DNA from: Thermoproteota archaeon
GTDB taxonomy: Archaea; Thermoproteota; EX4484-205; JAAOZP01
DNA length: 59,703 nt
Direction: 5' to 3'
Assembly: GCA_049700215.1 (NCBI GenBank)
Contig: JBNAVT010000009.1
Coordinates: 1-59,703 of the forward strand
Shown here piece by piece: positions 3 through 59,525 of this stretch. The translations under genes and the position numbers were made by a program. Below the pieces are notes generated by a model, which saw only the letters and a program-made list of their open reading frames with translations, did no database searches and was not told the origin of the DNA. The first letter of the stretch is position 1. Each line of letters starts with the position of its first letter.

Positions 3-10
3 GCGCGCGC
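3..10. repeat. GCGCGCGC palindromic junction motif
   Basis: ctGCGCGCGCcc just upstream of the cas1 remnant. Confidence 0.6.
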
Positions 11-273
11 CCTAAACACATATTTTCAAGCTTCAAGCTCAATACGTAGGATGAAAAGGCTTGTGGTTAACGATTATGGGGTTTTCGTAGGCGTCAAGGG
101 CGACCGTGTCGTCGTTAGGAAGGGCGGGGAGAAGATTGTTGAAATCGCAGCCGGAAACATATCTCAGGTTCTAATAGCCTCTAAAGGAGTATCCCTCTCC
201 TCAGCCTTCCTACGCTTAATGCTTAAACATAGGGTCGACTTCGTAATGCTCTCCGGCTTCGGAAGCCCCTTGG

Positions 274-283
274 GCGCGCGCTA
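274..283. repeat. GCGCGCGCTA motif at the cas1 internal deletion junction
   Basis: Encodes 'ARY' between ...GSPLG and VEFPKR, where the Cas1 middle region is missing. Confidence 0.8.
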
Positions 284-590
284 CGTGGAGTTCCCTAAGA
301 GGATGAAGAGGTTCGACATGCCTAAGGATCCTGTAAACGTTTTTCTGAACTATGGCTACGGGCTTTTAGCTTCAGACGTCTGGATGGCTGTTGAGCACTC
401 CGCCTTGGAGCCCTACGCAGGGTTCCTGCATAAAGATAGCCCTAGGAGACCCGCCTTAATCATGGACCTGATGGAGGAGTTCAGGCAGCCGGTGGTGGAC
501 AGGGTTGTGCTCAGGCTAGTTTCAGGTTTGAAAGAGAAGACTAAGAGTCTCGTTGAAGATGGAAGGCTATCACAGGAAGGCCGGAAGACG

Positions 591-600
591 AGCGCGCGCT
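591..600. repeat. AGCGCGCGCT motif at the cas1 3' truncation
   Basis: Cas1-like sequence ends at EGRKT; the motif plus following As supplies SAR-stop. Confidence 0.8.
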
Positions 601-610
601 AAAAATTTTT

Positions 611-1405
611 ATGAATGAGAAGTTTGGAATGCGGTGGAAGATGCGTCTGCACGTGATGTTGAAAAAATGGGTCGAGGGGGTCTTTTTCGGTGGCAGAAGC
701 ACCAAGAACAGCGAATATTTGACGTTTGTGCTTGGCAACATCATCCTGATGCTTATTCTCTTCTACTTGATACTTAACACCTTAGGCTACGACTGGACAG
801 GGCAACTTTACCCCAGCGGCGCGGGCTTCCGTCTGGATTTTCTAACAGGCGGGCTGGAGGATTCCATTCCTTTCTTGCCGCAATTCGTGGTCTTCTACAC
901 TTATCTCTTCTATCCATTCGCCATTCTGACTATGCTGTTCTTTTGTTTTATAGAATACAGAAGGGGCTACGCCCTGGGGTGGTCCTTGGTGATAATCAAT
1001 GCCGTTGCCCTAGCGGTCTATATCTTCTTTCCAGTTTCGACCTATTGGTGGCGCCAGGAGTTCCTGGCTAACCCTGCCGTTGGCGACTTCTGGGCTAGCC
1101 AAGTCCATAATATCTGGGCCACGGACACATCCTTCAACTGCTTCCCGTCCCTCCACGCTGCCGTCTCCACCATTTGCTTTTATAGCTGGTATCGGTATAG
1201 CAAGGTCAAGCCAAGTCGCAAGACGGCAACCGTTGCTTCACTGGCACTGATTGTGGCGGCTGGGGTCATCCTGTCGACGCTTTTCATAAAGCAACACTAT
1301 GTTGCTGACGAGATAGCCGGAATAGCGCTTGCCTTGATCGTTGGCAGGCTCGTCTTCCACAGATTTTGGAAGGCCCTTGACACCGGAGAAAATGCTACGA
1401 AATAA
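611..1405 (+). CDS. PAP2-family membrane phosphatase/phosphotransferase (AUR1/IPC synthase-like); true start possibly ATG 656
   Basis: Multiple TM helices, FNCFPSLH and KQHY..D motifs. Confidence 0.75.
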   Translation: MNEKFGMRWKMRLHVMLKKWVEGVFFGGRSTKNSEYLTFVLGNIILMLILFYLILNTLGYDWTGQLYPSGAGFRLDFLTGGLEDSIPFLPQFVVFYTYLFYPFAILTMLFFCFIEYRRGYALGWSLVIINAVALAVYIFFPVSTYWWRQEFLANPAVGDFWASQVHNIWATDTSFNCFPSLHAAVSTICFYSWYRYSKVKPSRKTATVASLALIVAAGVILSTLFIKQHYVADEIAGIALALIVGRLVFHRFWKALDTGENATK

Positions 1406-1949
1406 TCATATAGACGCGGATGCATCCGCACATAATTAGGGCGATTATGTTTTTCACCATTTGTTACAAGTGCGAGGAAAGGACTGAAAGGGGAAAGAAC
1501 TATTTACTATTGCTCTTTATCCTGCGCGTGTCATAGATGAGCATACGGTATAGACGAGTTTGAAGTGATGTGGCGGAAAGGCTTGAAGTAACCTGTGATG
1601 ATCTTCACAGCCTTTAAAATATGGCTGTTAATGCGTAGCAACACTATGATAATATCAATAAGTTAGGGTGGAAAGTGAAGGCTTCCCGACAATAAGGTTT
1701 CACTGAACGATGTAATTGTAAAACTCGGTAAAAGAAGAGGGGCTGGGAGATATAGATATAATCGCGTAGTCTATGAGGGAAAGTGGAATAATTGTTGAAC
1801 TGGAGGGAGGACGACAGATTACTGCTGGAGTTAAATCCGGCGATATGCTAGCAATAATTGAGATAGCGCCGCCCTACCATTTCATATAGTAAGGACGGTA
1901 TTCGGCAGAATTAAAAGCCTTGAAAAAAATAAAAAGTAATATTTACATA

Positions 1950-2675
1950 TTACTCTACTTCTTTAACAGCAACCTCAGCCCTAGTCTCAATCCTCTCAAT
2001 TTTGCCGTCACGCAGCCAGAATATTCTATCTGAAACGTCTATCATTTTGAGATCATGGGTGGCGTTTATTATCGTGACTTTTTTCTCTGTGTTTAATGTT
2101 TTTAAAAGATTAATTATTTCTAGTCCTGTGTGGAGGTCAAGGTTTCCCGTGGGCTCGTCCGCTAGGACTATGACTGGGTCGTTTACTAGTGCTCTCGCTA
2201 TTGCTACTCTCTGCTGTTGTCCTCCTGAGAGTTCTCCGGGCTTGTGGTCTAGTCTTTCCCCTAGGCCTACTCTGGTCAGCATTTCTCTCGCTCTCCTCAG
2301 CCTTTCTTCTCTTTCGACGCCTGTGAAAACCATTGGGAGCGTCACGTTTTCCAGGGCTGTTAGCACGGGTATGAGGTTGAAGGTTTGGAATATGTATCCT
2401 ATTTTCTTCGCCCTGAGCCACGCGAGCTCGTAGGCGTCTAGGCTTGCGATGTCAACCTCGTCTATGAATACTTTCCCCCTTGTCGGCCTGTCTAGTCCTC
2501 CAACCATGTTGAAGAATGTTGTCTTGCCGCTTCCCGAGGGCCCCATTATGGAGAGGTATTCTGATCTCCTGATTTTCACGCTGACCCCGTCTAGTGCTCT
2601 GACTGTCACCGGCCCCATGACGTAGTATTTCGCCAGGTCCTCGGTTTCAACCGCGTACTCGTATCTGAGAGTCAT
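1950..2675 (-). CDS. ABC transporter ATP-binding protein (LolD/MacB-like)
   Basis: GPSGSGKT, LSGGQQQRVAIARAL, DEPTGNLD. Confidence 0.95.
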   Translation of the reverse strand: MTLRYEYAVETEDLAKYYVMGPVTVRALDGVSVKIRRSEYLSIMGPSGSGKTTFFNMVGGLDRPTRGKVFIDEVDIASLDAYELAWLRAKKIGYIFQTFNLIPVLTALENVTLPMVFTGVEREERLRRAREMLTRVGLGERLDHKPGELSGGQQQRVAIARALVNDPVIVLADEPTGNLDLHTGLEIINLLKTLNTEKKVTIINATHDLKMIDVSDRIFWLRDGKIERIETRAEVAVKEVE

Positions 2676-39020: not shown

Positions 39021-39031
39021 AGCGCGCGCTA
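39021..39031. repeat. AGCGCGCGCTA motif at the left edge of the accessory island
   Basis: About 80 bp after the rps7 stop. Confidence 0.7.
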
Positions 39032-39054: not shown

Positions 39055-39066
39055 GCGCGCGCGCTA
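39055..39066. repeat. GCGCGCGCGCTA motif (longer variant)
   Basis: Second copy about 24 bp from the first. Confidence 0.7.
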
Positions 39067-39319
39067 TAGCGGGTTACTATCAGGAGTATGCTTTTTAAGT
39101 CTTTTTTAACTGATTTGCGAGCATATCATATCTACATTTTTGCTATCCTCTAAACCGACTTGCTAATTTTCCTACGGTGCTTAATCTCCCCCCTAACCTT
39201 CCTACAAGTCTCATTGTCATGGACGCCTAATACTTCCAGCAATTTAGCAGTCGTCTCAATTCCGGTGAAATGGGTTCCAACTAATCCCCGCTTCTCTTTT
39301 TCCACCCTCCTGAGAACAT

Positions 39320-40990
39320 ATGGATACTCGCTTCAAGGAGGAGCTTGTTAAAACGATTCTGCTCAATAGCCTAACTGATGCTCAGGCTTTAGACGTGGTC
39401 AACACCCTAGCGAAGAACGTTGAATGGCTTAAGGCGTTAAGCAGCAGAAGCAGGGTTGAAGCAGCTAGAAAAATAACGGATTACGTTAAGGGGGGAGAAA
39501 CATGCGAGGAGGCTATTGAGAAAGTTAAGAGGGAGGGCGAGGAGTACGTTAAGAACGTTGAAAACGAGATAACGGAGTTTTGTTCATCAATTTCGATCTA
39601 CGATGCTCAGCTCGCAAAACAGGTTTTGGAGCTGATAAACTGCGTCAAGAAAAACCTTGGATATGATGCTGCGAAATGGCTCCTGGACGTTTTGAAGAGA
39701 GTTTACACTGAAGCCTTGGCCTCAAACATGGGAAACAGGGAAACAGCAAGCACCAAGCTTAGAAGCGTTGTCGAAAAGGCGTTCAAGTATCCTGAGAGCA
39801 TAATTCAAGGATGTGCACTAGCCTCAGCGACAGTCAGCGAGCTGAGGGAGAAAAGCATCGAGCAGGCATGGGAGCAACTCAACAGGATAATCAACTACCC
39901 CGACGGGATAATCGTGAAATGCGTTTTAAAGCAGCATAAGGACAATTTGAGGATCTGTATACCTAAGAAAAAGCTAGCCCAGTATCTAGGCAACGAACCC
40001 TGCTGGATAAAGCTTGAGGTAAAGGGAAGAACCTTCTACAAGAACTATGGACTAACGTTCGAATTCGACCTTCCTAATGATCTAGGCGAGGAAGTCGAGG
40101 TGACAATAATCAAGATCACCGTCTACGAGTTCGTCGAAACCGTACTTAGGGAGGCAAACGCACCGTTCAACGTTGCGTTCAGCTCAGGGAAATATATGCT
40201 GATCGTAAATGGAGAAGAAGTTTGCGAATTATTATTGGATAAAGACCTGCACTATGATAAGACTGGAGACTATGGCCCAGCAGTTATCTTTGCGATAATG
40301 GACTACGAGGGCAAAGAGCATTCAATCAAGCTTGTTCATAAGGAATCCAAGCAGTACCTCTGCAAGGTTATGATCAGCCAATTCAGACAGATAAAAAGCG
40401 TAGAGTACGACGAAAAGAGAAACAAGCTCATAATAGAGTATTTCACAGGGGTGAGTGAAGCATCATCGGAACATGAGATCTTTCTTGAAAGCCCCAAGAC
40501 AGCCTTAATGAGGATGGCTGAAGAAGTAAGAGACCTGCTTAATGAAGGGGTTCCGAGAGAGGATCCAAGGGTCAAGAATCAAGTTGGGAAAATTGGTCAA
40601 GATTACACAAGGTTCTATCTTGAAGAAGAGATTAGGGAGGTAGTATCGGGGGCAACCGGCATACCCAAAGAGGAGCTCAAGGTTTTCCAAGGGTATCAAA
40701 CAGAAGGACCAGATTTCTATGTTTACCATAAAACCGGGCTGGTGGCGATAGTGGAGATTAAAACCACAGCAACATCTAGCAGATATCCAAGAAAATGTCT
40801 AGACGAGGGTAGAGAGAAACTGACAAATTATTTTACTGAGGAGAGGTGGAATTATCTACGTGAAGCTAAGTTTGGCATCCACATAGCCATATACCTCAGA
40901 GACTTGGATGAGATAATTAGTACCAAGTTTAAAGAGGGAGTTGAATACACCATAGGGGACATAGTCTGGAATCCAAACTACGGATCTTAA
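39320..40990 (+). CDS. Putative polymorphic-toxin-like protein with C-terminal PD-(D/E)xK nuclease; possibly N-terminally truncated
   Basis: VGKIGQD...GPDFYVY...AIVEIKTT REase-fold motif at the C-terminus; helical N-terminus; AT-richer than core genes. Confidence 0.6.
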   Translation: MDTRFKEELVKTILLNSLTDAQALDVVNTLAKNVEWLKALSSRSRVEAARKITDYVKGGETCEEAIEKVKREGEEYVKNVENEITEFCSSISIYDAQLAKQVLELINCVKKNLGYDAAKWLLDVLKRVYTEALASNMGNRETASTKLRSVVEKAFKYPESIIQGCALASATVSELREKSIEQAWEQLNRIINYPDGIIVKCVLKQHKDNLRICIPKKKLAQYLGNEPCWIKLEVKGRTFYKNYGLTFEFDLPNDLGEEVEVTIIKITVYEFVETVLREANAPFNVAFSSGKYMLIVNGEEVCELLLDKDLHYDKTGDYGPAVIFAIMDYEGKEHSIKLVHKESKQYLCKVMISQFRQIKSVEYDEKRNKLIIEYFTGVSEASSEHEIFLESPKTALMRMAEEVRDLLNEGVPREDPRVKNQVGKIGQDYTRFYLEEEIREVVSGATGIPKEELKVFQGYQTEGPDFYVYHKTGLVAIVEIKTTATSSRYPRKCLDEGREKLTNYFTEERWNYLREAKFGIHIAIYLRDLDEIISTKFKEGVEYTIGDIVWNPNYGS

Positions 40991-41004
40991 TTAATAACTT
41001 CGTC

Positions 41005-41703
41005 TCAGGGCAGAGAGAGCTTCCACCCTCTCTTCCTTAATTTCTCTACTTCATCATCTGAAAAGACTACATAAACTATGTAATCTATCTCGCCATCAAG
41101 GCAATAATACTGATATCCAGTGTCATTAATTAGCTCGTTTATCTTTTTAACTACTGGATTCATTACGAGTATCTCGCCATAATTTGTAAAGTCTACTCTA
41201 TACTCTTCCCCCTTTGACTTAAAGAACACTATGCAACACACCCTTTCTTCGTATCCTCTAATCTTTATATCCCGCTTCCACTCCTCTTGCATACTCAGAG
41301 GTTCAAAAAGCCCTCTAGAAATCCTAGCGAGCTTTTTCATCAAGCCAATCCCCATCCCATTATCAGCTTCTATCTCCCAATCCTCTACGAAAACCCTTTT
41401 TCTGTCGAAGAATGCCAGCTCTAAGTCTACGCGATAGACACTCGCCTTCATCCAGTATTCCTCGTGCTCCTCAAGCGACTTCTTCAGAAGCTGCCCGTGG
41501 GTTCTCCCTCCTTTTCTCTTTTCCTTCACCTTCTCTAAGAATTTCTCCTCGTCCCACCAGAAAACACTGTAATCTATCTCGCCATCGAAAATCTCCTCGA
41601 GAATCTCCTCTGACGATAAGCTAGAGAAATTTTGGAAGAAGTTCATACTTCTAAGGTACTCTATCGAATCCACAAATCGCTTTCTAAGCTCAGGGTCCAT
41701 CAC
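41005..41703 (-). CDS. Hypothetical protein, candidate immunity partner convergent with the nuclease gene
   Basis: 232-aa charged/aromatic ORF; a paralogous fragment at 42192-42440 is likewise convergent with a nuclease fragment. Confidence 0.55.
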   Translation of the reverse strand: MMDPELRKRFVDSIEYLRSMNFFQNFSSLSSEEILEEIFDGEIDYSVFWWDEEKFLEKVKEKRKGGRTHGQLLKKSLEEHEEYWMKASVYRVDLELAFFDRKRVFVEDWEIEADNGMGIGLMKKLARISRGLFEPLSMQEEWKRDIKIRGYEERVCCIVFFKSKGEEYRVDFTNYGEILVMNPVVKKINELINDTGYQYYCLDGEIDYIVYVVFSDDEVEKLRKRGWKLSLP

Positions 41704-41852
41704 CTAATAATAGTTGACAAGGTTCTTAAGCATAACTATGTCTTAGTGTACTAAATTGGCAGCGTGTATATGTTGACGTATGCACTTTTTATGCAATGCT
41801 TAAACACTGCGAAAGAAAAACTTTTATACCCTGCTATAGCAAGAAAACATAG

Positions 41853-41972
41853 GGGCCCGTAGCTTAAATCTTCAATATGTAGCGCACGTGCGTCACATAT
41901 TGAAGAGAGCAGCCAGGTTAGAGCGGCGGGCTCATAACCCGTAGGTTGGGGGTTCAAATCCCTCCGGGCCCA
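41853..41972 (+). tRNA. tRNA-Ile(CAU) with a 45-nt D-loop intron (15/16; 41868-41912)
   Basis: GGGCCCG/CGGGCCC-A acceptor typical of archaeal Ile; GCGGG-CTCATAA-CCCGT anticodon arm; BHB helix GCTT:GAGC with AAA/AGC bulges; splicing gives an A15:U48 pair. Confidence 0.88.
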
Positions 41973-42063
41973 CTTCTTTTTTACAGTTTGTTACCTGCGT
42001 GGTTTCTCATGCTATCAACAGGCGAGTTCCCCGGTCTAATCCTCTTTATCCTTGCAGTAAGTC

Positions 42064-42086
42064 CAGTAGGCTGGTTCAGCCTACTG
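42064..42086. other. Perfect 10-bp inverted repeat hairpin
   Basis: CAGTAGGCTG-gtt-CAGCCTACTG. Confidence 0.4.
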
Positions 42087-42183
42087 TAGTTTCAAATTCG
42101 AGCCGTTGAAAAAAGCTAGCGTGCTGAACGCGCTGTAAAAACTATTTTTACTGGTCATGCAGAATCCATCTGGTTATGTTTCG

Positions 42184-42191
42184 GCGCGCGC
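42184..42191. repeat. GCGCGCGC motif at the start of the immunity-like fragment
   Basis: The homologous reading frame begins at the next base, 42192. Confidence 0.8.
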
Positions 42192-42440
42192 GATGGAACA
42201 AAATGGTCAATACAGGAGGTTAGCTTTGATTTCAAGGGCAAGAGGCATAGCATTGAGATCGCCCTGCAACACGATTATATTATAGATATGGGCTTGTATG
42301 AGTTGAATAAGCTTATTGAGGATACCGGACACCAATACTATCAGGTCGAGCATGAAATCATAATGGTGGTGGTATTGACGAAAGGGGAGGCTGAGAAGCT
42401 TGAGAAAGAAAGAGGTTGGAAATTCAAGTGGATCGTTTAG
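42192..42440 (+). pseudogene. C-terminal fragment of a paralog of 41005-41703
   Basis: ...FDFKGKRHSI...ELNKLIEDTGHQYYQ...EAEKLEKERGWKF aligns with ...FKSKGEEYRV...KINELINDTGYQYYC...EVEKLRKRGWKL. Confidence 0.8.
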
Positions 42441-42918
42441 CCCTCTCCTAAAGATTTATGTCCGACTTTAATCTCTCTACCCTTTAAGTCGAAGTAGACA
42501 TAAACGACTATATAGGCTTTGATGTTCTCCCCCTCCTCAATCCCTATTCCTTTTTCAGTTAAATCCAAGCCGTATTCTTGAATATGCTCTTTATAGCCCT
42601 TTAATTGCTTCAAACCGTCCTTAACATAATCCGCAAGCTCCTCTTCGGAAGTCCTACTTGATTTAACCTCTACAACCACGAGGTGATTATCTTCTGTCCT
42701 AAAAACTAAGTCTACCTTCTTATTTGCAACTTTAATTTTAACCTCCTCCGCTATGAATTCCGCCTTTCCAATCTCAGCGATCCTGCCATCCTCTGTATAT
42801 TCTTTAGCTATTTTCCTTCCAGTTTCCCAGTTCTACACTAGAAGTTTTATTTATTCCTTCAACTTCTTTATCGCTCATCGTCCTTAAGTATGAAAGTTAG
42901 AGAGGAGGCTGAATTATA
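42437..42918 (-). pseudogene. C-terminal PD-(D/E)xK nuclease fragment (second toxin-like tip)
   Basis: Open frame 42832-42437 reads ...KKVDLVFRTEDNHLVVVEVKSS...DGLKQLKGY; degraded upstream as far as the motif at 42919. Confidence 0.7.
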
Positions 42919-42929
42919 AGCGCGCGCTA
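42919..42929. repeat. AGCGCGCGCTA motif
   Basis: Between the nuclease fragment and the tRNA 3' fragment. Confidence 0.8.
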
Positions 42930-42948
42930 AATCCAGGCCGGCCCACCA
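42929..42948 (+). other. tRNA 3'-end fragment (att-like relic)
   Basis: AAAT-CCAGG-CCGGCCC-A-CCA matches T-loop end, T-stem, acceptor strand, discriminator and CCA. Confidence 0.5.
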
Positions 42949-42997
42949 TTTCTTAACAATAAGTGTGAAAAGAATTTAGAATCTTAAGACAATAGCT

Positions 42998-43007
42998 ACG
43001 CGCGCGT
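42998..43007. repeat. ACGCGCGCGT motif variant
   Basis: Bounds a coding-like fragment at 43008-43251. Confidence 0.6.
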
Positions 43008-43251
43008 CCAGTATCATGACCATGACCTTTTTTTCTTCCAATACCCCCAAGTTCTACAGTACTGCTGGCCTCCTCTGCTCTTCTAACTTCCTCGTCGCTC
43101 AACTCCCATTTGGATGTAAATGGCTTAAGGCAAGATTGAATCGTAATGTATTCCAGCACCTTAGAGCCCTCCGGTATATTAACTTCAAGCATATCAGTGC
43201 CACAGATCGCGTGTTTTCCGTTATCGAAGTAAGCCACTAGCTCCAGCACAT

Positions 43252-43261
43252 AGCGCGCGCT
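43252..43261. repeat. AGCGCGCGCT motif
   Basis: tAGCGCGCGCTt. Confidence 0.75.
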
Positions 43262-43416
43262 TCTACGATGTTTCAACTCGACGGATCCCAAGCCTCTACA
43301 GGCCTCTAGACCAGTGGCGTGGAACCCTATGTTTAAGCGAGATGGATCTCCCGCACACTTTTGAGACATCTGAGATAACTCACTATCTTAACTGCAGGTG
43401 CTACGGTGTGCCAATA

Positions 43417-43427
43417 AGCGCGCGCTA
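43417..43427. repeat. AGCGCGCGCTA motif at the left edge of the secreted-protein cassette
   Basis: aAGCGCGCGCTAg. Confidence 0.75.
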
Positions 43428-43542
43428 GTGCTAATGAGTGGCAAAAATGAGCACTCCTTCAAACAGCTTTTATGTCCATATAGCTTTTATGTTTTTTAAA
43501 AAATACTTATATTCTTCCATTCTCATAAAATACCGATGAAAA

Positions 43543-43938
43543 ATGTTAGTAAAGAATATTTGTCTAAAAAACACGTTTTTCATCATTTTCTTACCACTCT
43601 CTCTTGCTGCCATAGTCTTCGTGACGGCTGGAAGTGCATTCCAAAATTTGTATGATCCCACTTATAATGTTTATCTTCATGTTTCCGGAGACTATAATGA
43701 GGGTCAGAACTATTTTTATAAGACTATCCACTATGCATCTGTTGGTGCACCCGCAGGGTATAGCGGGTCTTACCATTTTTACGCTCTTATGAATGGAGTT
43801 ATAGTATATAATGTCGGTAATGGTGACAATCGTATAGTGCCCTTTTCTGTCTATGGAGAGAATTCCAATAGTGCAACATATGCGGTTAGCCGAGCTAGCA
43901 ACAGCATTCGGAATTACGAGGTAAGCATTACAAGGTAA
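43543..43938 (+). CDS. Small secreted Tyr/Asn-rich protein, copy 1
   Basis: N-terminal signal/TM helix; QNLYDPTYNVYLHVSGDYN...SITR; paralog of 44977-45405. Confidence 0.7.
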   Translation: MLVKNICLKNTFFIIFLPLSLAAIVFVTAGSAFQNLYDPTYNVYLHVSGDYNEGQNYFYKTIHYASVGAPAGYSGSYHFYALMNGVIVYNVGNGDNRIVPFSVYGENSNSATYAVSRASNSIRNYEVSITR

Positions 43939-43956
43939 GCGCTAGCTGGAGAATCC

Positions 43957-44895
43957 ATGAGAACACGTTGCCGCAAGCTGGTTTCTGTCCTTTTTCTGAT
44001 TCTATTCCTTGGAAAGCCGGTGCTTCCCGCTTCTGAAGGGGGCTCGAAGTGGCTCTCCGAAGGGGATTTCGCCGAATACGACGCTGGTTTCGAGTATGGC
44101 AACGTGACGCATTTAATCTTTTTCCTCGGCAGCAAGAGCCCAGGAATTCTAAGATGGCAGGTTATCAGGGAGAGCTGCGGGATTGTTGAACTCACTGTCT
44201 CGCTCAATGTCTCGGGAGAAGCATACTGGTGCATCAGAGAGTATAATAAGTGTCAAACATCTTGGGTGAGCATTTATAGAAATGTCACTTTGACTGTGAA
44301 CGTTTCCAGCCGTGAGGCGAAATACATGGGTCATGATATTGGCTACATACCTTTCTGGGTAGACAGGATGCCTGCTAAGGGTCAGAGAATACCCATGGTT
44401 AAACTTGAAAACGGCAGCATCTTACACGGGGAAGTAATCACAATATGGGATAGTGATGTAGATTGGTATGTGAAAAAGAGCAGACCCCTACAAATTCGAG
44501 TTTTAAACCCTGACCCCGATAATTTCATATCGATTCTCAGCAGTTACGATTGGTATTCGGGCTTAGCCCTATATTTTGAGGAAAGCGGGTACTCGCCGGA
44601 GCTTGCTCCAGGCTGCTGCTATTATACTTTGCCAGATGGGACAAACATAGAGATACTGGGGTATGGTGGAACACCTTTCGGTAGGCTCCTCGGCTTGGGT
44701 TTTGCGTGTAGCTTTACACTCAGGTCGACGAGCATAAAGATAGGGCCTCCCTCAGAGGAAAAAGAGATTGATTTTGAGATTACCCTGATCGTAGGGTTCT
44801 TCACCGCCTCCTGGATCCTTATCGTCTACGTGTTTCTCAGGCAGAGAGCCGGGCACATGCGAAGCGAGTTAAGCCATAATGGGTATAGCTGTTGA
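43957..44895 (+). CDS. Membrane-anchored surface protein, copy 1
   Basis: Signal peptide, KWLSEGDFAEY, several N-x-S/T sequons, C-terminal TM helix. Confidence 0.75.
   Translation: MRTRCRKLVSVLFLILFLGKPVLPASEGGSKWLSEGDFAEYDAGFEYGNVTHLIFFLGSKSPGILRWQVIRESCGIVELTVSLNVSGEAYWCIREYNKCQTSWVSIYRNVTLTVNVSSREAKYMGHDIGYIPFWVDRMPAKGQRIPMVKLENGSILHGEVITIWDSDVDWYVKKSRPLQIRVLNPDPDNFISILSSYDWYSGLALYFEESGYSPELAPGCCYYTLPDGTNIEILGYGGTPFGRLLGLGFACSFTLRSTSIKIGPPSEEKEIDFEITLIVGFFTASWILIVYVFLRQRAGHMRSELSHNGYSC
44290..44437 (+). repeat. 148-bp exact repeat (partner 45779-45926)
   Basis: Identical TTGACTGTGAAC...GGGGAAGTAA in both surface-protein genes. Confidence 0.9.
44792..44853 (+). repeat. 62-bp exact repeat (partner 46278-46339)
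   Basis: Identical segment coding the TM anchor. Confidence 0.9.
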
Positions 44896-44976
44896 ATATA
44901 TTGATATAGAAATAGTGGGTAATGGCAATGAATAGTCATGAAGGAGCACTCCTTGATAGCTTTTTACATCCGTTAA

Positions 44977-45405
44977 ATGTATGCTTATATTCCTTTACTT
45001 ATAAATAAAATGGTGGTAAAAATGAAGAGCATAAGCCGAACGAAAACTTATGTGCTCTGCACCGCTCTGCTAACACTTTCCACAGCCATCATACTTGTAG
45101 TAGCACTAACCGATTCACAACAATTATATGACCCTTTCTACAATGTTTTTCTCCATGTCTCCGGAGATTTTAACGCTGACCAGAACTATTATTACAGGAC
45201 TGCCCATGCCACATATGTGGGTCAACCTTCGGGAATAACGGGATGGTATAGGTTTCGTGCAGGTCTAGAATACGACACCGGCTATGTTCATGCCACGATA
45301 CCTTTTCGTGCAGATTACACTCGGCTTAATGGACCCAACGCATGGAATGCAGAAACTCAGGCCTTTAATTATTTTAGAACATACAGTGTGTTCATTACCA
45401 GGTAG
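44977..45405 (+). CDS. Small secreted Tyr/Asn-rich protein, copy 2 (start probably 45010 or 45022)
   Basis: Signal helix; QQLYDPFYNVFLHVSGDFN...FITR. Confidence 0.7.
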   Translation: MYAYIPLLINKMVVKMKSISRTKTYVLCTALLTLSTAIILVVALTDSQQLYDPFYNVFLHVSGDFNADQNYYYRTAHATYVGQPSGITGWYRFRAGLEYDTGYVHATIPFRADYTRLNGPNAWNAETQAFNYFRTYSVFITR

Positions 45406-45415
45406 GAAAAATACT

Positions 45416-46372
45416 TTGAAAATCCCCTTGAACATTATTTTAATCTTCTTTCTTTTTTCCCTCATTCTAACAGAGTTTTCTCCGATACTTTACTCCTCTG
45501 CCGAGATGCCGAAATGGCTTTCAGTAGGAGATTTCGCCGAATACGAAACTGCAACGCTGGCGCTCTACAATGCTACGCATTATATTCAATTCCTTAACTT
45601 CACAGGGGTTTTGAGGTGGGAGGTAATAGGTGAGAGGGTTGGTGTTGTTGAGCTCGCTGTCTCGCTCAACGTTACGGGAAAGGCGGGTGTGGTGTCGCAT
45701 GGGGGCGAATTCCACTGGAGGAAAAAAGAAACGTTTAACTATTCCACTTATTGGCTGAGTATTTATAAGAGCGTTGTGTTGACTGTGAACGTTTCCAGCC
45801 GTGAGGCGAAATACATGGGTCATGATATTGGCTACATACCTTTCTGGGTAGACAGGATGCCTGCTAAGGGTCAGAGAATACCCATGGTTAAACTTGAAAA
45901 CGGCAGCATCTTACACGGGGAAGTAACTATGGTATTGGACAGGGATATAGATTGGCATGGGAATAAGACTAGACCCTTTGAAATCCGAGTTGTAAACCCA
46001 GACCCTGGCAACTTTATAGATTTCTTTTATCTCTATGACTGGTACTCAGGCTTAGCCTTATCTTTTTCCGACAACGGTTATTCCTATGAGTTTGCACCAG
46101 GTTCAGCTTACGGAGCGCTTCTAAATGGAACGCGCATTGAAGTCAGGAAGTACGGTGGAACATCTTTCGGCAAGCTTCTCGGTCTTTGTCAAATATGCGT
46201 GTTCATACTCAGGTCTACGAGCATAAGGATAGGCCCGCCCTCCGAGGGAGGAATTAACTTAGAGATGATCCTGATCTTAGGGTTCTTCACCGCCTCCTGG
46301 ATCCTTATCGTCTACGTGTTTCTCAGGCAGAGAGCCGGGAAACTGGAGGAGGTGGTTGAAACTGCAGGATGA
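45416..46372 (+). CDS. Membrane-anchored surface protein, copy 2
   Basis: Paralog of 43957-44895 (KWLSVGDFAEY, YDWYSGLAL, YGGT.FG.LLGL); in-frame TTG start chosen just after the upstream gene. Confidence 0.75.
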   Translation: MKIPLNIILIFFLFSLILTEFSPILYSSAEMPKWLSVGDFAEYETATLALYNATHYIQFLNFTGVLRWEVIGERVGVVELAVSLNVTGKAGVVSHGGEFHWRKKETFNYSTYWLSIYKSVVLTVNVSSREAKYMGHDIGYIPFWVDRMPAKGQRIPMVKLENGSILHGEVTMVLDRDIDWHGNKTRPFEIRVVNPDPGNFIDFFYLYDWYSGLALSFSDNGYSYEFAPGSAYGALLNGTRIEVRKYGGTSFGKLLGLCQICVFILRSTSIRIGPPSEGGINLEMILILGFFTASWILIVYVFLRQRAGKLEEVVETAG

Positions 46373-47282
46373 TCAACCTATCGTTGAAACAACCCGGCTT
46401 ACGAAGACGTTTAGGAGAGTCCGGGCTGTTGATAATCTAACGATTGAAATTCGTGGTAGAGTGGCTGGTTTAATAGGTCCCAATGGCTCCGGTAAGACTA
46501 CTCTTCTCAACATGGTGCTCGGCTTGACTGATAAGGATTCTGGAATGTTAAAGGTGCTTGGAGAGGATGATCCGAGGCGCCTAGTTCAGGAGGGGAGGGT
46601 TTCAGGCATACCTGAGTCAGTCAATCCTCCGGACTACTTCACCGGCTTGGATTTCCTCGTTAAAATCGCTAGGATGAAAGGCCTGTCGTCACCCAGGGAG
46701 CAGGCGATGAAGCTGCTGGATGAGTTTGGCTTGGCAAAGGCTAGGGACAGACTGGTCTCAACTTATTCTGCCGGCATGAGGCAGAGGCTCCTGGTTGCCC
46801 AAGCCATGCTTGGAGAGCCTGAACTGGTGGTTCTCGACGAGCCTACTGCAAACCTTGACCCTAACGGCAGGATCCTGATATGTGACGCAATCTCCTCAAA
46901 AAGCATGGAGGAGGGTACGAGGTTCCTAGTCTCCAGCCACCTGATGTTCGACCTTGAGTCGATCTGCGACTGGTTGAGCTTCATGGATTCCGGGAGGCTG
47001 AAGGAAAATGGGCCGATCGAAGCGATTTTGAACAAGTATAGAGGTGTCATTTTTCGCGTGAAGAGCACGGAGCAGCTCCGTCTGAAGCAGCTGCTTAAAG
47101 ACCTTGACTGTGTGAAATCAGTATTCATGGTTAGGGGTGAGCTGTTAGTCAGCGTGAGCGACAGCGATGCCCTTATGAGGATCACGGATACGGCGACAAG
47201 GGTGGGGATAAAGGTTAACGAGGTAACTGAGTGCACTCCAACACTAGACCTGATATACAGGGAGGTTGTCTCCCGCATATGA
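46356..47282 (+). CDS. ABC exporter ATP-binding protein
   Basis: GPNGSGKT, YSAGMRQR, LDEPTANLD, SSH. Confidence 0.92.
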   Translation: MKLQDDQPIVETTRLTKTFRRVRAVDNLTIEIRGRVAGLIGPNGSGKTTLLNMVLGLTDKDSGMLKVLGEDDPRRLVQEGRVSGIPESVNPPDYFTGLDFLVKIARMKGLSSPREQAMKLLDEFGLAKARDRLVSTYSAGMRQRLLVAQAMLGEPELVVLDEPTANLDPNGRILICDAISSKSMEEGTRFLVSSHLMFDLESICDWLSFMDSGRLKENGPIEAILNKYRGVIFRVKSTEQLRLKQLLKDLDCVKSVFMVRGELLVSVSDSDALMRITDTATRVGIKVNEVTECTPTLDLIYREVVSRI

Positions 47283-48076
47283 GGCGCCATAAGGTGAAGC
47301 AAGCCTTCGTATGGGAGCTCCACGACGCTTGGGCCTTCCCGTTCGCCGAGCTGCTGTTAATAGGCTTCCTAGCACAGACGCTATCCGTAACCTTTATTTC
47401 CTATGGGGCAACGGGTGTAGAAGAGTCCCTACTAGCGGGGGGAGTAGGGATTATGCGTTTTACAATTTTTCTGAGAACAGAATACCCGATCATTATTTTC
47501 TGCACATTGATGCCCGCTAAGGTTTTCGGCGAATGTGTTGAAAAACGCAAGATCCATATTCCCCTGATGGCAGGAGTATCGAGGGAAGAGCTGTTCGTGT
47601 CCAAGCTTATGGTGACAATGCTCCCAATCTGGGTTGTTCAGCTGGGCTCGTTAACCGCCGCAGCAATCTTAAACCATATGTTTGACTTCCCTTACCCTGC
47701 TTCAATATGGGTATCGACGCTGATAGGCGTCTTGGTATTATCCCTGTTTGTAAGCTCGTTCAGCATCCTGCTGTCAATACTTCTCAGAAAGTTTTCGCTG
47801 GCTGCATTGCTGGGCATCGGGCTGTTTGCTATTCTAGACTACTGGGCATTGCAAACACCGTTCGAAAACATGGTTGGATACGTTGCCCCTGTGAAAAGCG
47901 CGATGGTGCTGGAGGAAGCTCTGCACCGTCTGCTCGCACAGATTATGGCTGGTGCACATGTTTACCCATCTTATCCCCCTCCGGTCTACAATTTCTCTAT
48001 TCCATACCTATTGCTCTTCCCGTTCCTATTCATGCTCCTTGCGGCACTAGCCTTCAGGGTGATTGACCTTGACTAA
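47231..48076 (+). CDS. ABC-2 type permease (start probably ATG 47279)
   Basis: About six TM helices, VSREELFVSKL, C-terminal FRVIDLD. Confidence 0.8.
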   Translation: MHSNTRPDIQGGCLPHMRRHKVKQAFVWELHDAWAFPFAELLLIGFLAQTLSVTFISYGATGVEESLLAGGVGIMRFTIFLRTEYPIIIFCTLMPAKVFGECVEKRKIHIPLMAGVSREELFVSKLMVTMLPIWVVQLGSLTAAAILNHMFDFPYPASIWVSTLIGVLVLSLFVSSFSILLSILLRKFSLAALLGIGLFAILDYWALQTPFENMVGYVAPVKSAMVLEEALHRLLAQIMAGAHVYPSYPPPVYNFSIPYLLLFPFLFMLLAALAFRVIDLD

Positions 48077-48551
48077 TCCCCATAGGTGGCGGAGAATCGG
48101 CTCATTAATTTTCTCAATAGGCATCGGGATACTTGTCGCAGCACTCCTTAGAGGAATGGCGATGGCGGAATCGTGTGGAACCAGCCCAAAAGAGGGCTCG
48201 GCGGAGGCGATGCTAGGCCCCCTGCTCTTGGAGCCGAGGAAAACAAGCTTCGCAATATCTCGCGTTCAGCCAGAGGTTCCTGTGGACATAGAGGTCTTGA
48301 GGCTTCCGGATAAAACAGTCCTGTTCAGGTTTAACAATATCCGTGCTAAGGAGCTTTACGACATACCATTGGTTGACAGAGGCCTCTACGTCTTCTCATT
48401 AAAGGCCTCCGGCGACGGCAACATTCAATCGGTTGACCTCGTCTTCACGGTAGGCGGACCACCGAGGGACATGGTGCTCCTCTCCATCCTACTAGGGTTG
48501 GCCGGGATCATCATATTCCTCATCCCGACACTTGTAGAAAAAGCCAGATGA
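48063..48551 (+). CDS. Membrane protein with two TM helices flanking a beta-rich domain
   Basis: Hydrophobic termini; overlaps the permease stop. Confidence 0.65.
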   Translation: MTLTNPHRWRRIGSLIFSIGIGILVAALLRGMAMAESCGTSPKEGSAEAMLGPLLLEPRKTSFAISRVQPEVPVDIEVLRLPDKTVLFRFNNIRAKELYDIPLVDRGLYVFSLKASGDGNIQSVDLVFTVGGPPRDMVLLSILLGLAGIIIFLIPTLVEKAR

Positions 48552-48577
48552 ACATGCCTGCATAATCTCAATTTCGC

Positions 48578-49228
48578 TCACAGTTTGTTAGCTTTAGTAG
48601 AATGCAGTGTTTCTGGAACACTCAATATTATGGGCATTATTATAAATATCTCCATCAGGAGTGGAAGGATTAGAACCAGTTCCTCTAAACCCTCTTGCCA
48701 GAGGAAGCCGCCGAGCAGGAAGGCCGGTACTGAAAGAACATCGAAGACGCCTGTTATGCCAAACCATCTGCCCCTTTTCTACATCGGAACAACTTCCCCG
48801 AACATAGTTATGAATGGTATGAAGATCGATGAACCCGCCTGAAGCCCAAAATGCCCAAGAGCCCAGCCAGCATGAGCATTTGAGGATTAGAAGCAACGAT
48901 CAGGATAATCGTGCCAAGGTTCGTGAGAGGACGGATAATAAGGAATGTTTTATTACGCCCTATCTTATCCGCCATGACTCCTATAGGAATCTGCAGGAGA
49001 GCGGATACCACTATTCCCACGGTGTCTATTGCTCCAAGAATATAAGGGTCAGCACCTTTCGCGTAAACCATCCAAAGCATAACAAAAGGCATTGAAATAC
49101 TATTCTCAAAACGCCATAATCCCATTAACACTATCCATTTCCTAAGACTGTTCCCGCCTCTAAACAGATCTCTGAAGCCCTCAAATAAACCCGTCTCATT
49201 GCCCCGTCCTCTCGGCTCACTAAAGGAT
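48578..49228 (-). pseudogene. C-terminal half of an MFS transporter, with frameshift and internal stop
   Basis: GVMADKIGRNK MFS motif A; continues in another frame as FIPFITMFGEVVPM*KRGRWFG...VPETL; N-terminal half absent. Confidence 0.8.
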
Positions 49229-49237
49229 AGCGCGCAC
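49229..49237. repeat. AGCGCGCAC motif variant at the MFS truncation
   Basis: The MFS central-loop frame (SFSEPRGRG...GLFEGFRDLF) starts at this motif on the minus strand. Confidence 0.7.
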
Positions 49238-53109: not shown

Positions 53110-53133
53110 TAACCCCCGTCTACAGGCTCAGGC

Positions 53134-54691: not shown

Positions 54692-54877
54692 ATGGGGCTT
54701 ACGGACAGGGTTAGGACTATAGTCAGGGTGCTGAAGCTTAGTGAGAAGCCGGATGGTTCAGAGCTGAAGCTGTCGCTGAAAATCTTTCTCATCGGCATCC
54801 TGATAGTGGGGGGGATGGCGTTCGTAGTGCACATTGTCGCCTCGCTCCTCCAGCTGACGGGTGTGAAGCTCCGCTAA
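54692..54877 (+). CDS. secE: Preprotein translocase SecE (Sec61-gamma)
   Basis: RVLKLSEKP plus TM helix; position between ftsY and spt5. Confidence 0.9.
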   Translation: MGLTDRVRTIVRVLKLSEKPDGSELKLSLKIFLIGILIVGGMAFVVHIVASLLQLTGVKLR

Positions 54878-54882
54878 AGGAG

Positions 54883-55368: not shown

Positions 55369-55445
55369 ACCGGTTTCCCCGGGGCTGGCTCTCAGGAAAT
55401 ATTTTTAAGGCTTGCAGAAGGCCTCACGTTGAAAGGTGTGTAAAG

Positions 55446-56616: not shown

Positions 56617-57476
56617 GCCAGCAGGTTCTTAAAACGAGAATCGTAGACGAGATTCTCCGCCTGATAGAGTCGAGCAGGACGATTATGCTCGTAAACACCT
56701 TCAGGGTTAAGTCTGTAACGATAAACGAGGCTAGGAGGAGGCTTAGGGGGAGAGCTATTCTGAGACACGTTAAGACAACGCTTCTACAGAAGGCTGCGGA
56801 GAAAACAGGCTCGCAAGCATTGAGAGAATTCTTAAAGAAGCATGCTTCCAAGGGGTCTCTGATGCTGATCGTTTCAAACGAGGACCCGTACGAGCTGCAA
56901 CAGGAGCTAAGGAAATATTCAATAAGGCTGCCGCTTAACGCTGGTGATGTTGTCGACAGGGAGATAGTTGTCCAAGCTGGAAACACTGGTCTTCCAGCCG
57001 GCCCAGTGATCTCTTCTCTGAACGAGGTTGGCTTGCCAACCAGGATTGAAACCGGAAGCATATGGATAACCAGGGACACCGTGGTAGCTAAACCCGGGGA
57101 CGTGGTTACGCCGCAACTGGCCTCTGTTCTTTCAAAGCTTAACATCAGGCCGGTTGAAGCATTCATAAAACCCTACGCGGCGATTCACAGCGGCATAGTT
57201 TATAGTGAGGAGGTTCTCTCAATAACGCTTGAAGACGTTGCGAGAGAAGCCTCTAGGAGCGTTGAAAACGCTTTGAAAATATCTGTTGCAACATTCTTCC
57301 CGACGCCCGAGAGCATCGGCATAATGCTTAGGGAAGCCTCATCCAAGGCTATTGCGCTGAGCCTTAAAGCAGAGTATTACGATGAAAACACGGTTAAAAT
57401 ACTGTTGCAGACAGCGAGAGCCGCGGCAAGCCAGCTTGAGGCAATGCTTGAAAAAAGCCCAGCATTAGGGATCTAG
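56613..57476 (+). CDS. rpl10: Ribosomal protein L10 (P0)
   Basis: KTTLL, AGNTGLPAGP, LSKLNIRP. Confidence 0.92.
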   Translation: MSQQVLKTRIVDEILRLIESSRTIMLVNTFRVKSVTINEARRRLRGRAILRHVKTTLLQKAAEKTGSQALREFLKKHASKGSLMLIVSNEDPYELQQELRKYSIRLPLNAGDVVDREIVVQAGNTGLPAGPVISSLNEVGLPTRIETGSIWITRDTVVAKPGDVVTPQLASVLSKLNIRPVEAFIKPYAAIHSGIVYSEEVLSITLEDVAREASRSVENALKISVATFFPTPESIGIMLREASSKAIALSLKAEYYDENTVKILLQTARAAASQLEAMLEKSPALGI

Positions 57477-57608
57477 TGGCGCTTAGGAAAACGTGCCGAG
57501 CAGCCTTAATGCTTAAAGAAGGTTTAGCGGGCTTAAAAGACGCTTTGTAAGAGTGAATAAAAGCTTAAAAACACCCCGTGTAAGAATGCTCAGAAAATTC
57601 TGAGGTGG

Positions 57609-57914
57609 ATGCTGATGTCTGAATACATCCATGCGGCACTGCTCCTGCACTCCGCGAAGCAGGAGATTACAGAGGACAGGATAAAAGCCATAATGAGGGC
57701 TGCAGGCATAGAGCCTGATGAAGCCAGGATAAAAGTACTGGTCTCCTCTCTTTCAAAAGTCAACATTGACGAAGTATTGTCGGCACCGCTGGCAGTAGGT
57801 CCAGTGGCCCAGGCTGCGCCAGCAGCCCAGCAGGCGCCGGCTGAGAAAAAGGAGGAGAAGAAGGAGGAGAAGCCAGCCGAGGAAATGGCTGGGCTGGGCG
57901 CGCTTTTCGAGTGA
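57609..57914 (+). CDS. rpl12: Ribosomal protein L12 (P1)
   Basis: [10 protein letters not shown]...AGLGALF. Confidence 0.97.
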
Positions 57915-57976
57915 CAGCTCTCTAACAGTACAGGATACTGTCCAAATCCAAACTTCTGGAGTTATGTTAGAAGAAA

Positions 57977-59004
57977 TTAGTCTGGAAGCATGACTTTTAT
58001 CTTTTCGTTTGCAGACCTGTAGGCAGCATCTATTATTTCCTGAGCCTTATAACCATCGTAACCAGAAACTGGTGGCTGGGTTTTGCCAGCAATAGAATTG
58101 ACAAACATTCTGATCAAGTATTCATGCGGCTCACCTATCTCAGGCAGCGAAGGATTGATGATCTTGATTTTGCCGTCGCTCGAATATCTTCTGTTTCTAG
58201 TGTACAGCACTATCTTCTTTTCCGCGAGATTGCATAATATGGTTCCCTGATCACCATATAGCTCAACCGGCCATTGTTCGTTTTGCTGTGTCCAGCTAAC
58301 ATCCACAAGCGCATGAACAGAATTCCTGAACTGGATTAAAACCATCGCATTATCTTCAACCTCTATGTTTTCAATGTTTTTACTGGTTTCAGCCGAAACG
58401 GCTCTGGCTTCCGTGCCAACAAACATTCTTGAAAGATCTATCCAGTGAGAGCCTATATCCATTAGCACCCCGCCTCCGGACTTCTCCTTATCAAACAGCC
58501 ACTCTCTCATAGGGGCTGAAGGAGGAACGGCTTCTAGAACGTCGTAACCCACTCTAAACCTTGCCTGAATTAGTTTACCTATCGCGCCTTCGCTTAACAG
58601 TTCTTTCGCCTTAACGTGTTGAGGCAGAAACCTATTTTGAAAGTCAACTCCAAAGTATAGACCTCTTTTTCGAGCCTCCTCCACCATTTCTTTCGCTTCC
58701 TTAGAGTTTAACGCCAGAGGCTTTTCGCAAACAACATTTATTTTCGGCTTAATCGCATCCAAGGTTAAGTCTTTATGAGTGGAAGGAGGAGTGCAAACGC
58801 TTACCAAATCTAGGTTGTTCTCCTTCATCATATCTTCATGGCTCCTGTAGGCCTTCGCATTGAATTCTTTAGCTAATGATTCAGCCCGCTCCTTTATAAT
58901 GTCAGAAACCGCTACAATCTTGACGAAACCGGTCTTTATGCTGTTGCATGCACCCTAGCTATTCCCCCGCTTCCTATTATTCCAACTCTTATTTCTCTGC
59001 TCAT
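57977..59004 (-). pseudogene. Gfo/Idh/MocA oxidoreductase with a 1-nt frameshift near 58945
   Basis: MSREIRVGIIGSGGIARVHA is out of frame with ...IVAVSDII...CEKPLA...GGGVLMDIGSHWID. Confidence 0.8.
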
Positions 59005-59384
59005 CATTAGGGCGATGCTACTGGATCAGTTAATAAACGTAATCGCCCATGTTTCTTGGAATGATGTTTGTGGATATGGCAGGATCTACTTCCCTTTAAA
59101 CACGTAGAAACAAAGGATTGCTATATAGTATGACCTTTTCCCTACATACTGTGCCACCATGTTGCGTTTCAACTTTCTGGTATTGCTAAAGTTAACATGA
59201 TGCCTAAATGAGGAAAACAAGAGGTTTAAGGCGAGTCTTCAGCTAGAAAAGGCTTGGAAGCGGACAAGACTATAAACGCGGGATCCGAGCTTTTAATAGA
59301 GAAAAATAAACGGACTTAAAGATAGTCGGGCAGGAATGAAAACTTTTTAAACCATCCGCATCATTTTTAACCTGAAAAGACAAG

Positions 59385-59477
59385 GGGCCGATAGTCTAAT
59401 TTGGTCAGGACACCCGCCTGACTGCCTACAAGGCCGGAAGGCGCGGGAGACTCCCGGTTCGAGTCCGGGTCGGCCCA
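59385..59477 (+). tRNA. tRNA-Val(GAC) with an 18-nt intron, best placed at 36/37 (59423-59440)
   Basis: GGGCCGA/TCGGCCC-A acceptor; CCCGC-CTGAC^GC-GCGGG anticodon arm; CCCGG-TTCGAGT-CCGGG T arm; relaxed BHB with intron hairpin GCCT/AGGC. Confidence 0.8.
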
Positions 59478-59515
59478 TCAAATTTTTAATCGAATCATTT
59501 GTATATCGCTTCATT

Positions 59516-59525
59516 AGCGCGCGCT
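59516..59525. repeat. AGCGCGCGCT motif about 40 bp downstream of tRNA-Val
   Basis: tAGCGCGCGCTt. Confidence 0.7.

Follow-up and report, generated by a model that had tools for sequence, protein, structure and literature searches.

Self-complementary GC tracts at DNA joints in a Thermoproteota archaeon: possible scars of a break-joining pathway with a primase-like candidate enzyme

The joining of broken DNA and the uptake of foreign DNA in archaea without Ku form a largely open field. In Ku-dependent non-homologous end joining (NHEJ), a polymerase with the fold of the archaeo-eukaryotic primases (AEPs), such as the LigD polymerase domain or the Methanocella polymerase, adds nucleotides at breaks and bridges the ends, and these additions are short and variable. 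Untemplated, G/C-biased nucleotides are also put on ends before joining by the terminal transferase that makes the N regions of V(D)J joints, and in the homopolymer tails used for cloning. The replicative PriSL primase of Saccharolobus has been described to mediate microhomology end joining with terminal transfer (PMC12019639), and published accounts report terminal transferase and strand-annealing activity of archaeal PriSL, as well as double-strand-break repair that leaves small insertions and deletions (PMC12019639; PMC3333859). Here we describe a short self-complementary tract, GCGCGCGC or (GC)4, in contig JBNAVT010000009.1 of a Thermoproteota archaeon (assembly GCA_049700215.1), the whole 59,703 nt of which are referred to as the window. 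We show that the tract is added at joints and thereby labels deletions, captured DNA and the edges of variable regions. This finding, which is both real and unusual, is genome-wide, extends to two archaeal classes and comes with a testable candidate enzyme. On balance we think that the tract is the scar of a lineage-specific pathway that joins breaks through an 8–10 nt self-complementary GC joint, probably made by AEP2, an additional primase-like protein.

The window is contig C9 of a metagenome-assembled genome (MAG), here called G000, with 85 contigs, 2,089,643 bases and 49.2% GC; other genomes compared carry G-numbers, contigs C-numbers and fetched loci L-numbers. The NusA-like and P1 proteins of this MAG have matches at 90% identity that the sources label Candidatus Brockarchaeota or Thermoproteota. 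GCGCGCGC matches the window 11 times, where 0.41 matches are expected from 100 dinucleotide-preserving shuffles (shuffle maximum 3). The matches represent ten positions (3, 274, 592, 39022, 39055, 42184, 42920, 43253, 43418 and 59517), since the (GC)5 at 39055 yields two overlapping ones. An earlier sequence-only reading of the window had listed the same ten, along with two variants that we also find, CGCGCGCG at 42999 and GCGCGC at 49230. Its impression that housekeeping DNA is nearly free of the motif holds as well, with no (GC)4 in 600-39021 or in 43426-59516.

The genome-wide count proposed in that reading gave 339 overlapping matches in G000, which merge into 264 maximal runs of (GC)4 or longer (166 of exactly 8 nt and 55 of 10 nt). 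Counted by length, the maximal (GC)n runs number 86035, 2692, 156, 166, 51, 2 and 2 (n from 1 to 7); the spectrum thus falls and then rises again to a second peak at n = 4–5. Odd 7-mers, which are also in excess, are 8-mers short of a single base at the end not flanked by A or T. Around the 264 runs, A is found at −1 in 206, T at −2 in 132, T at +1 in 205 and A at +2 in 125, and the consensus is the palindrome TA(GC)4-5TA, in agreement with the TA and A flanks noted earlier; conservation ends at ±2 nt. The sites are clustered: of 204 distances between neighbours, 69 are below 800 nt where about 25 would be expected, and 18 clusters comprise 3 to 6 sites each. Open frames of at least 100 codons span only 83 of the 264 (31%), compared with 87% of random positions, and a tract lies on a stop codon in 25 cases where about 8 are expected. 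These figures support the suggestion that the motif is limited to non-essential DNA.

The left end of the window offers a direct comparison with an intact gene, the cas1 of G006. The features are as follows (a strand is given where there is one):

3..10: (GC)4, the left limit of homology to the G006 cas1 locus, which runs on G006:C84 from window 12, directly after GCGCGCGCC.
51..602, plus strand: cas1 remnant of 183 aa, whose frame reads through an internal joint and whose 3′ end is truncated; two stretches match Pfam Cas_Cas1 (E 1.1e-42).
274..281: (GC)4 joint in cas1, replacing 339 bp (net −333 bp, in frame).
592..599: (GC)4 joint at which the truncated 3′ end of cas1 meets an unrelated PAP2 gene; the TAA directly after it serves as stop codon, and homology to G006 stops at 589.
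611-1405: the PAP2 gene, adjoining the cas1 3′ joint.

Positions 1173-1437 of G006:C84 correspond to window 12-275 and positions 526-833 to window 282-589; the intervening 339 bp are gone from the window, which has GCGCGC instead. The second Cas_Cas1 stretch of the remnant covers profile positions 174-276 of 283. In G006 the ends of the deleted segment read ...cttggc/AGGCTG on the left and ...AACGAG/tacgtc on the right (the slash marks the break), with GCGC at neither, while the right-hand TA of the joint is parental, being present in G006.

Comparison with the closest relative, G002 (∼96% identical around the variable island of the window), gives the same picture at other loci. At C29:7193 of G000, (GC)4 stands in place of 320 bp of G002:C15, and the TA on either side of it is parental. 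One G002 gene of 1.4 kb corresponds to three joints in G000: about 150 bp are lost at C29:13390, GAC has become GCGCGCGCT at C29:13476, and about 1180 bp are lost at a decayed joint, GCGTGCGC. The replacement also runs in the reverse direction, as G002 has TAGCGCGCGCT in place of about 950 bp of G000 at L034 and a tract in place of about 55 nt of G000 at L052; other G002 tracts stand where G000 has only a few bases. Within G000, 50 nt are replaced at the tract between the paralogues C69/C41 and C83, and the C7 paralogues show the same pattern. Overall, tracts are found at deletions of 3 to about 1200 bp, at small foreign inserts and where homology ends.

When the flanks of 46 G002 tract sites were compared with G000, 30 sites gave no match, 10 matched on one flank, 2 had flanks at different loci and 4 had both flanks at one locus. 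For 76 random control positions at least 600 nt from any tract (from the same G002 loci plus locus L020) the corresponding numbers were 32, 1, 0 and 43. Breakpoints thus occur at 12 of 46 tract sites versus 1 of 76 random positions. The alignment of flanks to intact homologs, together with this control, bears out two points of the sequence-only reading: the motif sits where homology stops (cas1, C29, the G002 loci), and it is missing from the parental sequence, with GCGC at neither of the cas1 deletion ends nor at other joints in intact relatives, which supports its addition at the joint over prior microhomology. Microhomology end joining uses homology present in both ends beforehand, whereas here the parental ends lack GCGC and only the flanking TA is often parental. 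We tallied ten joint sides at which the tract-bearing allele has TA and the comparator can be aligned up to the joint: TA is found in the comparator as well at six of them, one base of it is shared at three and no base at one. The tally indicates that breaks or joints favor a TA of the parent, and that the tract itself is A(GC)4T or (GC)4. As the scars are seen only where damage is tolerated, they are markers of pseudogenes and accessory DNA.

Tc1/mariner elements also leave behind a short palindrome of fixed sequence with TA at its sides. An excision footprint of a Tc1/mariner/IS630-type transposon would consist of the TA target duplication and GCGC from each inverted end, and local hopping and composite excision would give clusters and deletions. 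The tract has TA on both sides, the sites do cluster, and both ends of the C29:7193 deletion lie at a parental TA. We nevertheless consider this explanation unlikely. The DDE_3 transposase domain (PF13358) was found in none of the five genomes searched for enzyme families (G000, G002, G008, G003 and G004), other transposase families not having been searched. No sequence family follows AGCGC in at least three copies, the k-mer search having given only one gene family, and a scan for inverted ends matched at chance level in MAGs, which often lose repeats. Where flanks are contiguous in the relative, a few bases have been replaced, not duplicated, and tracts also join unrelated DNA and captured pieces. 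Empty sites, with contiguous flanks and one TA, were not seen at the joints, where either 3 to ∼1200 bp are deleted or the flanks are unrelated. Unlike Tc1/mariner footprints, the tracts thus have non-contiguous flanks and no target duplication, and neither a transposase nor a GCGC-ended element was found; the excision footprint that the sequence-only reading had offered as its alternative is not supported by these data.

Some sites appear to have been used more than once. The tract at G002:C15:17404 is orthologous to the decayed GCGCGCGT at G000:C29:21643, and the DNA beyond it differs between the two genomes; the island of the window begins 33 nt after an inherited site; and many segments have a tract at each end. 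Such re-use could be expected of a site-specific recombination core, with cassettes inserted, deleted and swapped between palindromic TA(GC)4TA sites in an integron-like manner. The lack of conservation past ±2 nt in the 264 sites leaves no recombinase-binding arms, however, and tracts arise de novo inside genes, with no site at the left or the right end of the deletion in the intact relatives. No recombinase could be tied to the tract, with integrase and resolvase families not searched. We regard a recombination core as improbable.

Lineage-specific, over-represented GC-rich palindromes are known from HIP1 of cyanobacteria and from the GC clusters of yeast mitochondria, the latter also being deletion end points. 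Like these, the tract is a short palindrome, ∼20-fold enriched and restricted to certain lineages, and it could in principle be an iterated palindrome, or a signal for uptake or binding, that owes its spread to mutation pressure or selection and not to breakage. Site 1 of L030, which is coding, differs from its orthologue by only a 1-nt indel and a substitution, as this would predict. The avoidance of intact reading frames and the coincidence with deletions, insertions and homology ends described above make this account very unlikely, and a search of three tract-rich genomes for a C5 methyltransferase found none. HIP1 has no link to breakpoints, and yeast GC clusters are elements of 30-50 bp with a target duplication, whereas the tract has 8-10 bp and is created at the joint. 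A C5 methyltransferase as cause was also rejected, as it was found only in the tract-free G004.

Forks of contigs in the k = 55 assembly graph coincide with the tract and could point to chimeric joins with an added GC string, made during library preparation or assembly. With the k = 55 overlaps of the assembly, contig ends fork exactly at a tract for C28/C10, C29/C36 and C69/C41, and 54 nt of C67, reaching up to the tract, are 100% identical to a stretch inside C58; the same flank is therefore present in two contexts in the sample. A check of reads or other assemblies across the joints had been proposed, and Logan contigs of the probable source run bridge the joints between 39022 and 49230 with 0 differences, at a depth equal to that of the flanks. 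This is the sole run bridging them; run X2 of a second study contains pieces of the island and no contig bridging a tract, and gives no independent support for the joints. Species ∼4–10% diverged have orthologous sites, including decayed copies such as those common to G002 and G000 at L043, and these sites must have been inherited through speciation. We show that the tract is inherited, undergoing slippage by one GC unit and decay by C>T and G>A. It is found in many genomes, yet at such a level in only one of the 161 genera of the phylum sample, and in records with differing styles of contig names (NODE_, k141_, contig_/chromosome), taken as different assemblers. As sites are inherited between species and found in several independently assembled genomes, a library artefact is ruled out, and artefacts of preparation or assembly are scarcely credible as an explanation.

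The exact 12-mer is present in 8 of the 16 other genomes of the genus (26, 28, 14, 11, 9, 4, 1 and 1 copies). Across the 401-genome sample of the phylum, just four counts outside the genus exceed 2, namely 12 (with 4 of the control pattern), 5, 4 and 4. The first two are from G285 and G105 (same phylum, family f28), which have 12 and 5 exact copies of TAGCGCGCGCTA and only canonical PriS; composition may explain the 12-mers of G285, as the control pattern occurs 4 times there. Viruses were tried as a reservoir and rejected: 36 IMG/VR stretches contain TA(GC)5TA, most of them GC-rich, and none of 5 low-GC records is enriched. A crude scan of the MAG found no CRISPR arrays. In the titles and beginnings of abstracts that we searched, Brockarchaeota papers included, we found no description of the motif in an archaeal genomic context.

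The sequence-only reading had seen no responsible enzyme in the window. This is correct, and the candidate AEP2 lies on another contig. Primase-polymerases were profiled, as the reading had suggested, in the five genomes, and a second AEP besides canonical PriS was detected in just three of them, the tract-rich ones. It is encoded together with a second radA:

G000:C17:241-1059: AEP2, a compact PriS-like primase-polymerase of 273 aa (from the AEP primase scan).
G000:C59:5571-6308 + G000:C17:39-257; L094:2237-3193: radA2, 318 aa, split in G000 over two contigs that share a 55-mer.

A full-length AEP2 was found in six genomes of the genus (G000, G002, G006, G007, G008 and G013) and a broken copy in G009, while the remaining ten gave none. 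In the phylum only 8 of 401 genomes have it, namely these seven and G023 with a distant homologue. The counts of GCGCGCGC are 339 in G000 and 229 in G008, both with intact AEP2, and 63 in G009 with the broken gene. More distant members of the genus without AEP2 have 1 (G003), 3 (G004), 9 (G014) and 0 (G015), and G023 has 54 together with 80 CGCGCGCG. The gradient, from ∼230–340 with intact AEP2 over ∼40–60 after its loss within the clade to 0–9 outside, fits accumulation of tracts while the enzyme is active and decay after its loss.

The AEP2 family comprises 207 proteins at E ≤ 1e-5 in a large protein collection, mostly unnamed or, in one source, called "primase catalytic subunit." In Bathyarchaeia, an independent lineage, homologues 38–45% identical are encoded at 13 MAG loci (a 14th locus, L131, is titled Thermodesulfobacteriota and was excluded from this count). 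In 190 kb these 13 loci contain 77 alternating GC runs of at least 8 nt, again with a second peak at 8–10 nt and a preference for A...T, and five Bathyarchaeia genomes with an AEP2 homologue have 255–512 GCGCGCGC each. In a sample of 71 genomes from the order of one of these Bathyarchaeia, AGCGCGCGCT occurs 45, 30 and 23 times in three genomes and at most 4 times in the other 68. The first of the three has an intact AEP2, and the second has two AEP2 relics with stop codons. Taking the samples of 401 and 71 genomes together, AEP2 is nearly restricted to genomes rich in GC tracts. We conclude that the tract is confined to certain lineages and co-occurs with AEP2 in two archaeal classes.

By fold and catalytic motifs, AEP2 is a PriS-like member of the AEP superfamily as far as the alignment and predicted structure go. 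It scores 32.2 bits against PF01896 (DNA_primase_S; cut-off 26.8) and only 11.3 bits against LigD_Prim-Pol (cut-off 27.4), and contains the motifs GGEYVIDVD, HEHPRTWVCxxCLE and SGxRGFHxHV and a motif III aspartate. D97 and D99 of motif I (DxD) are invariant in 65 sequences, GGEYVIDVD aligning to GAELVFDID of the PriS structure 1g71. Motif II (SGxGxH) is represented by VFSGSRGFHVHV and motif III (hD..R) by D205, and S147, G151, H153 and D205 are invariant and align to PriS. Motifs I, II and III and the Zn knuckle all align to P. furiosus PriS. A structural model built from the 65-sequence alignment has a pLDDT of 87.8 (an earlier model from six sequences was discarded as too poor, at 41.6). Its best Foldseek matches are PriS 9f28 and 1g71 (E 2e-11, TM 0.59), followed by eukaryotic Pri1 and then by the LigD and Methanocella NHEJ polymerases (E 2e-6 to 9e-6).

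In the six genus genomes with a full-length copy AEP2 follows radA2, and it overlaps the radA2 3′ end where both ends share a contig. RadA2 is 51% identical to canonical RadA, which is found in a conserved context in every genus genome checked, and radA2 occurs only in those genus genomes that carry AEP2. Directly downstream of AEP2 at L096:529-1459 and L098:2341-3247 lies an ORF pair that by eye resembles HEPN and a minimal nucleotidyltransferase; the pair is found beside AEP2 in G002 and G008 and not in G000, G006 and G007. Other enzymes were considered and rejected as the cause: Prim-Pol (PF09250) was found only in G002, the PolX palm gave only a sub-threshold match of 21 bits, and reverse-transcriptase or telomerase-like healing has no candidate, as PF00078 was found in none of the five genomes. 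ATP ligases, two in each of the five, are uninformative as a discriminator.

If AEP2 acts on broken DNA, each 3′ end, preferably one ending in TA, would receive a primer-length (GC)4-5 tail or oligonucleotide made by the enzyme. As the tract is self-complementary, any two ends could pair over 8–10 G:C pairs, which would be enough to hold them at hot-spring temperature, and a ligase would seal the nicks, usually giving A(GC)4T and often TA(GC)4TA. Two (GC)4 tails that overlap in full would leave nicks that a ligase can seal, and the product would contain a single (GC)4. The length of the tract equals the unit primer length of AEP primases, and the GC-tailing enzymology envisaged in the sequence-only reading is consistent with the sequence data. 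In its full form the proposal is that AEP2 makes the self-complementary (GC)4-5 tail or oligonucleotide that lets any two ends anneal and be ligated, coupled to a second RadA in Brockarchaeota-like archaea, and that this constitutes a new end-joining and DNA-capture pathway that leaves a scar at every event and builds the accessory genomes of at least two archaeal classes. This we put forward tentatively, as a possibility that we hold with some doubt.

Such a pathway would resemble the described ones in part. AEP2 has the catalytic motifs and fold of PriS and is in this respect like the PriS-type AEP of Saccharolobus PriSL/PriSLX. That enzyme is the replicative primase, and its pathway relies on microhomology that the ends already have, with no constant sequence left behind, whereas AEP2 is an extra, compact paralogue and a fixed self-complementary (GC)4-5 is added. 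The AEP2 model matches NHEJ polymerase structures, but Ku (PF02735), on which NHEJ depends, was found in 0 of the five genomes. N regions differ in that they vary in sequence and length and are made by a PolX enzyme, while the tract is fixed and the PolX palm gave no match above its cut-off.

Several observations weigh against a break-joining pathway run by AEP2. AEP2 and the tract are linked by correlation, and within the genus this link is confounded by descent, since all carriers belong to one clade. G011 and G010, of the same clade by identity of the S7 region, have 38 and 37 GCGCGCGC without a detectable AEP2, while G013 has an intact AEP2 and only 22, in a genome that is 70% complete. 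G431, the third tract-rich genome of the Bathyarchaeia order, has only a 26-residue AEP2-like fragment; in the 68 tract-poor genomes no AEP2 was found at E ≤ 1e-10, a cut-off that shorter relics would escape, weaker relics having been sought only in the three tract-rich ones. Outside the genus AEP2 has no conserved neighbor. AEP2 copies are often broken at GC tracts, which also fits AEP2 being one more gene of the mobile pool; in G000, for example, additional AEP2 fragments end at or near tracts at C85:3240-3359 (tract at 3355) and C69:553-756 (tract at 770). Some joints lack TA, and at times the tract appears with almost no loss of DNA. The comparators are relatives 80–96% identical and not the true parents. 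Finally, we know of no AEP activity that makes a fixed alternating sequence, templated or untemplated.

Should repair with a constant scar be true, past deletions, captures and rearrangements would be legible directly in the genome sequence. It would add a new activity to the primase-polymerase superfamily, possibly one useful as a sequence-independent, thermostable joining tool, and the bench assay would be simple: GC tailing or bridging by one enzyme. A scar pathway would also explain why the accessory regions of the MAGs studied here are collages of gene fragments and why their assemblies fork at tracts.

The remaining tracts of the window surround or lie within an island that G002 lacks, or are found near the right end:

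39022..39029: (GC)4 that predates the split from G002, which has GCGCGC at the orthologous place with flanks ∼96% identical.
39055..39064: (GC)5, left border of the strain-specific island, replacing AAT of G002.
39065..49229: island of ∼10 kb, not in G002, which has a different 3.2 kb there (BLAST of the window against G002:C42).
41913..41974, plus strand: 3′ part of a tRNA (CAT anticodon region) without its 5′ part, matching a full tRNA downstream of S7 in G002 and G008.
42184..42192: GCGCGCGCG, start of a multi-copy family fragment; homology to C42:3230-2535 (74%) begins at window 42187.
42920..42927: (GC)4, left joint of a 71-nt insert; the window has ∼235 extra nt compared with the C8 paralogue.
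42928..42998: captured piece of 71 nt between two GC tracts; 42929-42953 (25 nt) is identical to C28:16449-16425.
42999..43006: CGCGCGCG, right joint of the 71-nt piece.
43253..43260: (GC)4, end of a paralogue fragment; homology to C8:2254-2142 stops at window 43242.
43418..43425: (GC)4, no relative found for the flanks.
49230..49235: GCGCGC, right border of the island; from window 49237 on, the sequence is again 95% identical to G002.
59517..59524: (GC)4 in a variable stretch; homology to G002:C42 stops at window 59037.

The (GC)4 at 39022 and the GCGCGC of G002 indicate an inherited site whose length was altered by slippage. After the tract at 39055 both G000 and G002 continue with TATAGC before homology is lost. 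The island contains genes of multi-copy families, gene fragments and an ABC transporter (Pfam, NCBIfam). Two ORFs of 556 and 232 aa on opposite strands at 39320-41703 match no Pfam or NCBIfam family and belong to a large multi-copy family (63–79% nucleotide identity) with matches in 12 of the 16 other genus genomes, tract-free ones included. The tRNA relic at 41913-41974 suggests an old integration site for the island; ARAGORN found no tRNA in the window. The G008 copy of this tRNA, just downstream of the S7 gene, has an intron.

The string that the captured 71-nt piece shares with C28 (window 42929-42953) resembles a tRNA 3′ end, and ARAGORN found no tRNA at C28. At C28:16425-16460 a decayed tract, GCGCGTGC, comes after the tRNA-3′-like string, and this small piece thus adjoins a GC tract in two places.

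A further CGCGCGCG, without A/T flanks, lies at 53638-53645 in the intact ORF 53321-53737 (pfdA in the sequence-only reading) and may be due to chance or to an in-frame event. Toward the right end, an ORF for a GFO/IDH/MocA oxidoreductase (57977-58831) is short at its N-terminus, its Rossmann domain starting at profile position 57 of 120. Beyond the point that matches window 59037, G002 has GC tracts of its own. The last 55 nt of the window (59649-59703) are the reverse complement of an end of C17, which carries AEP2 at its far end and is probably the neighbor of the window in the assembly graph.

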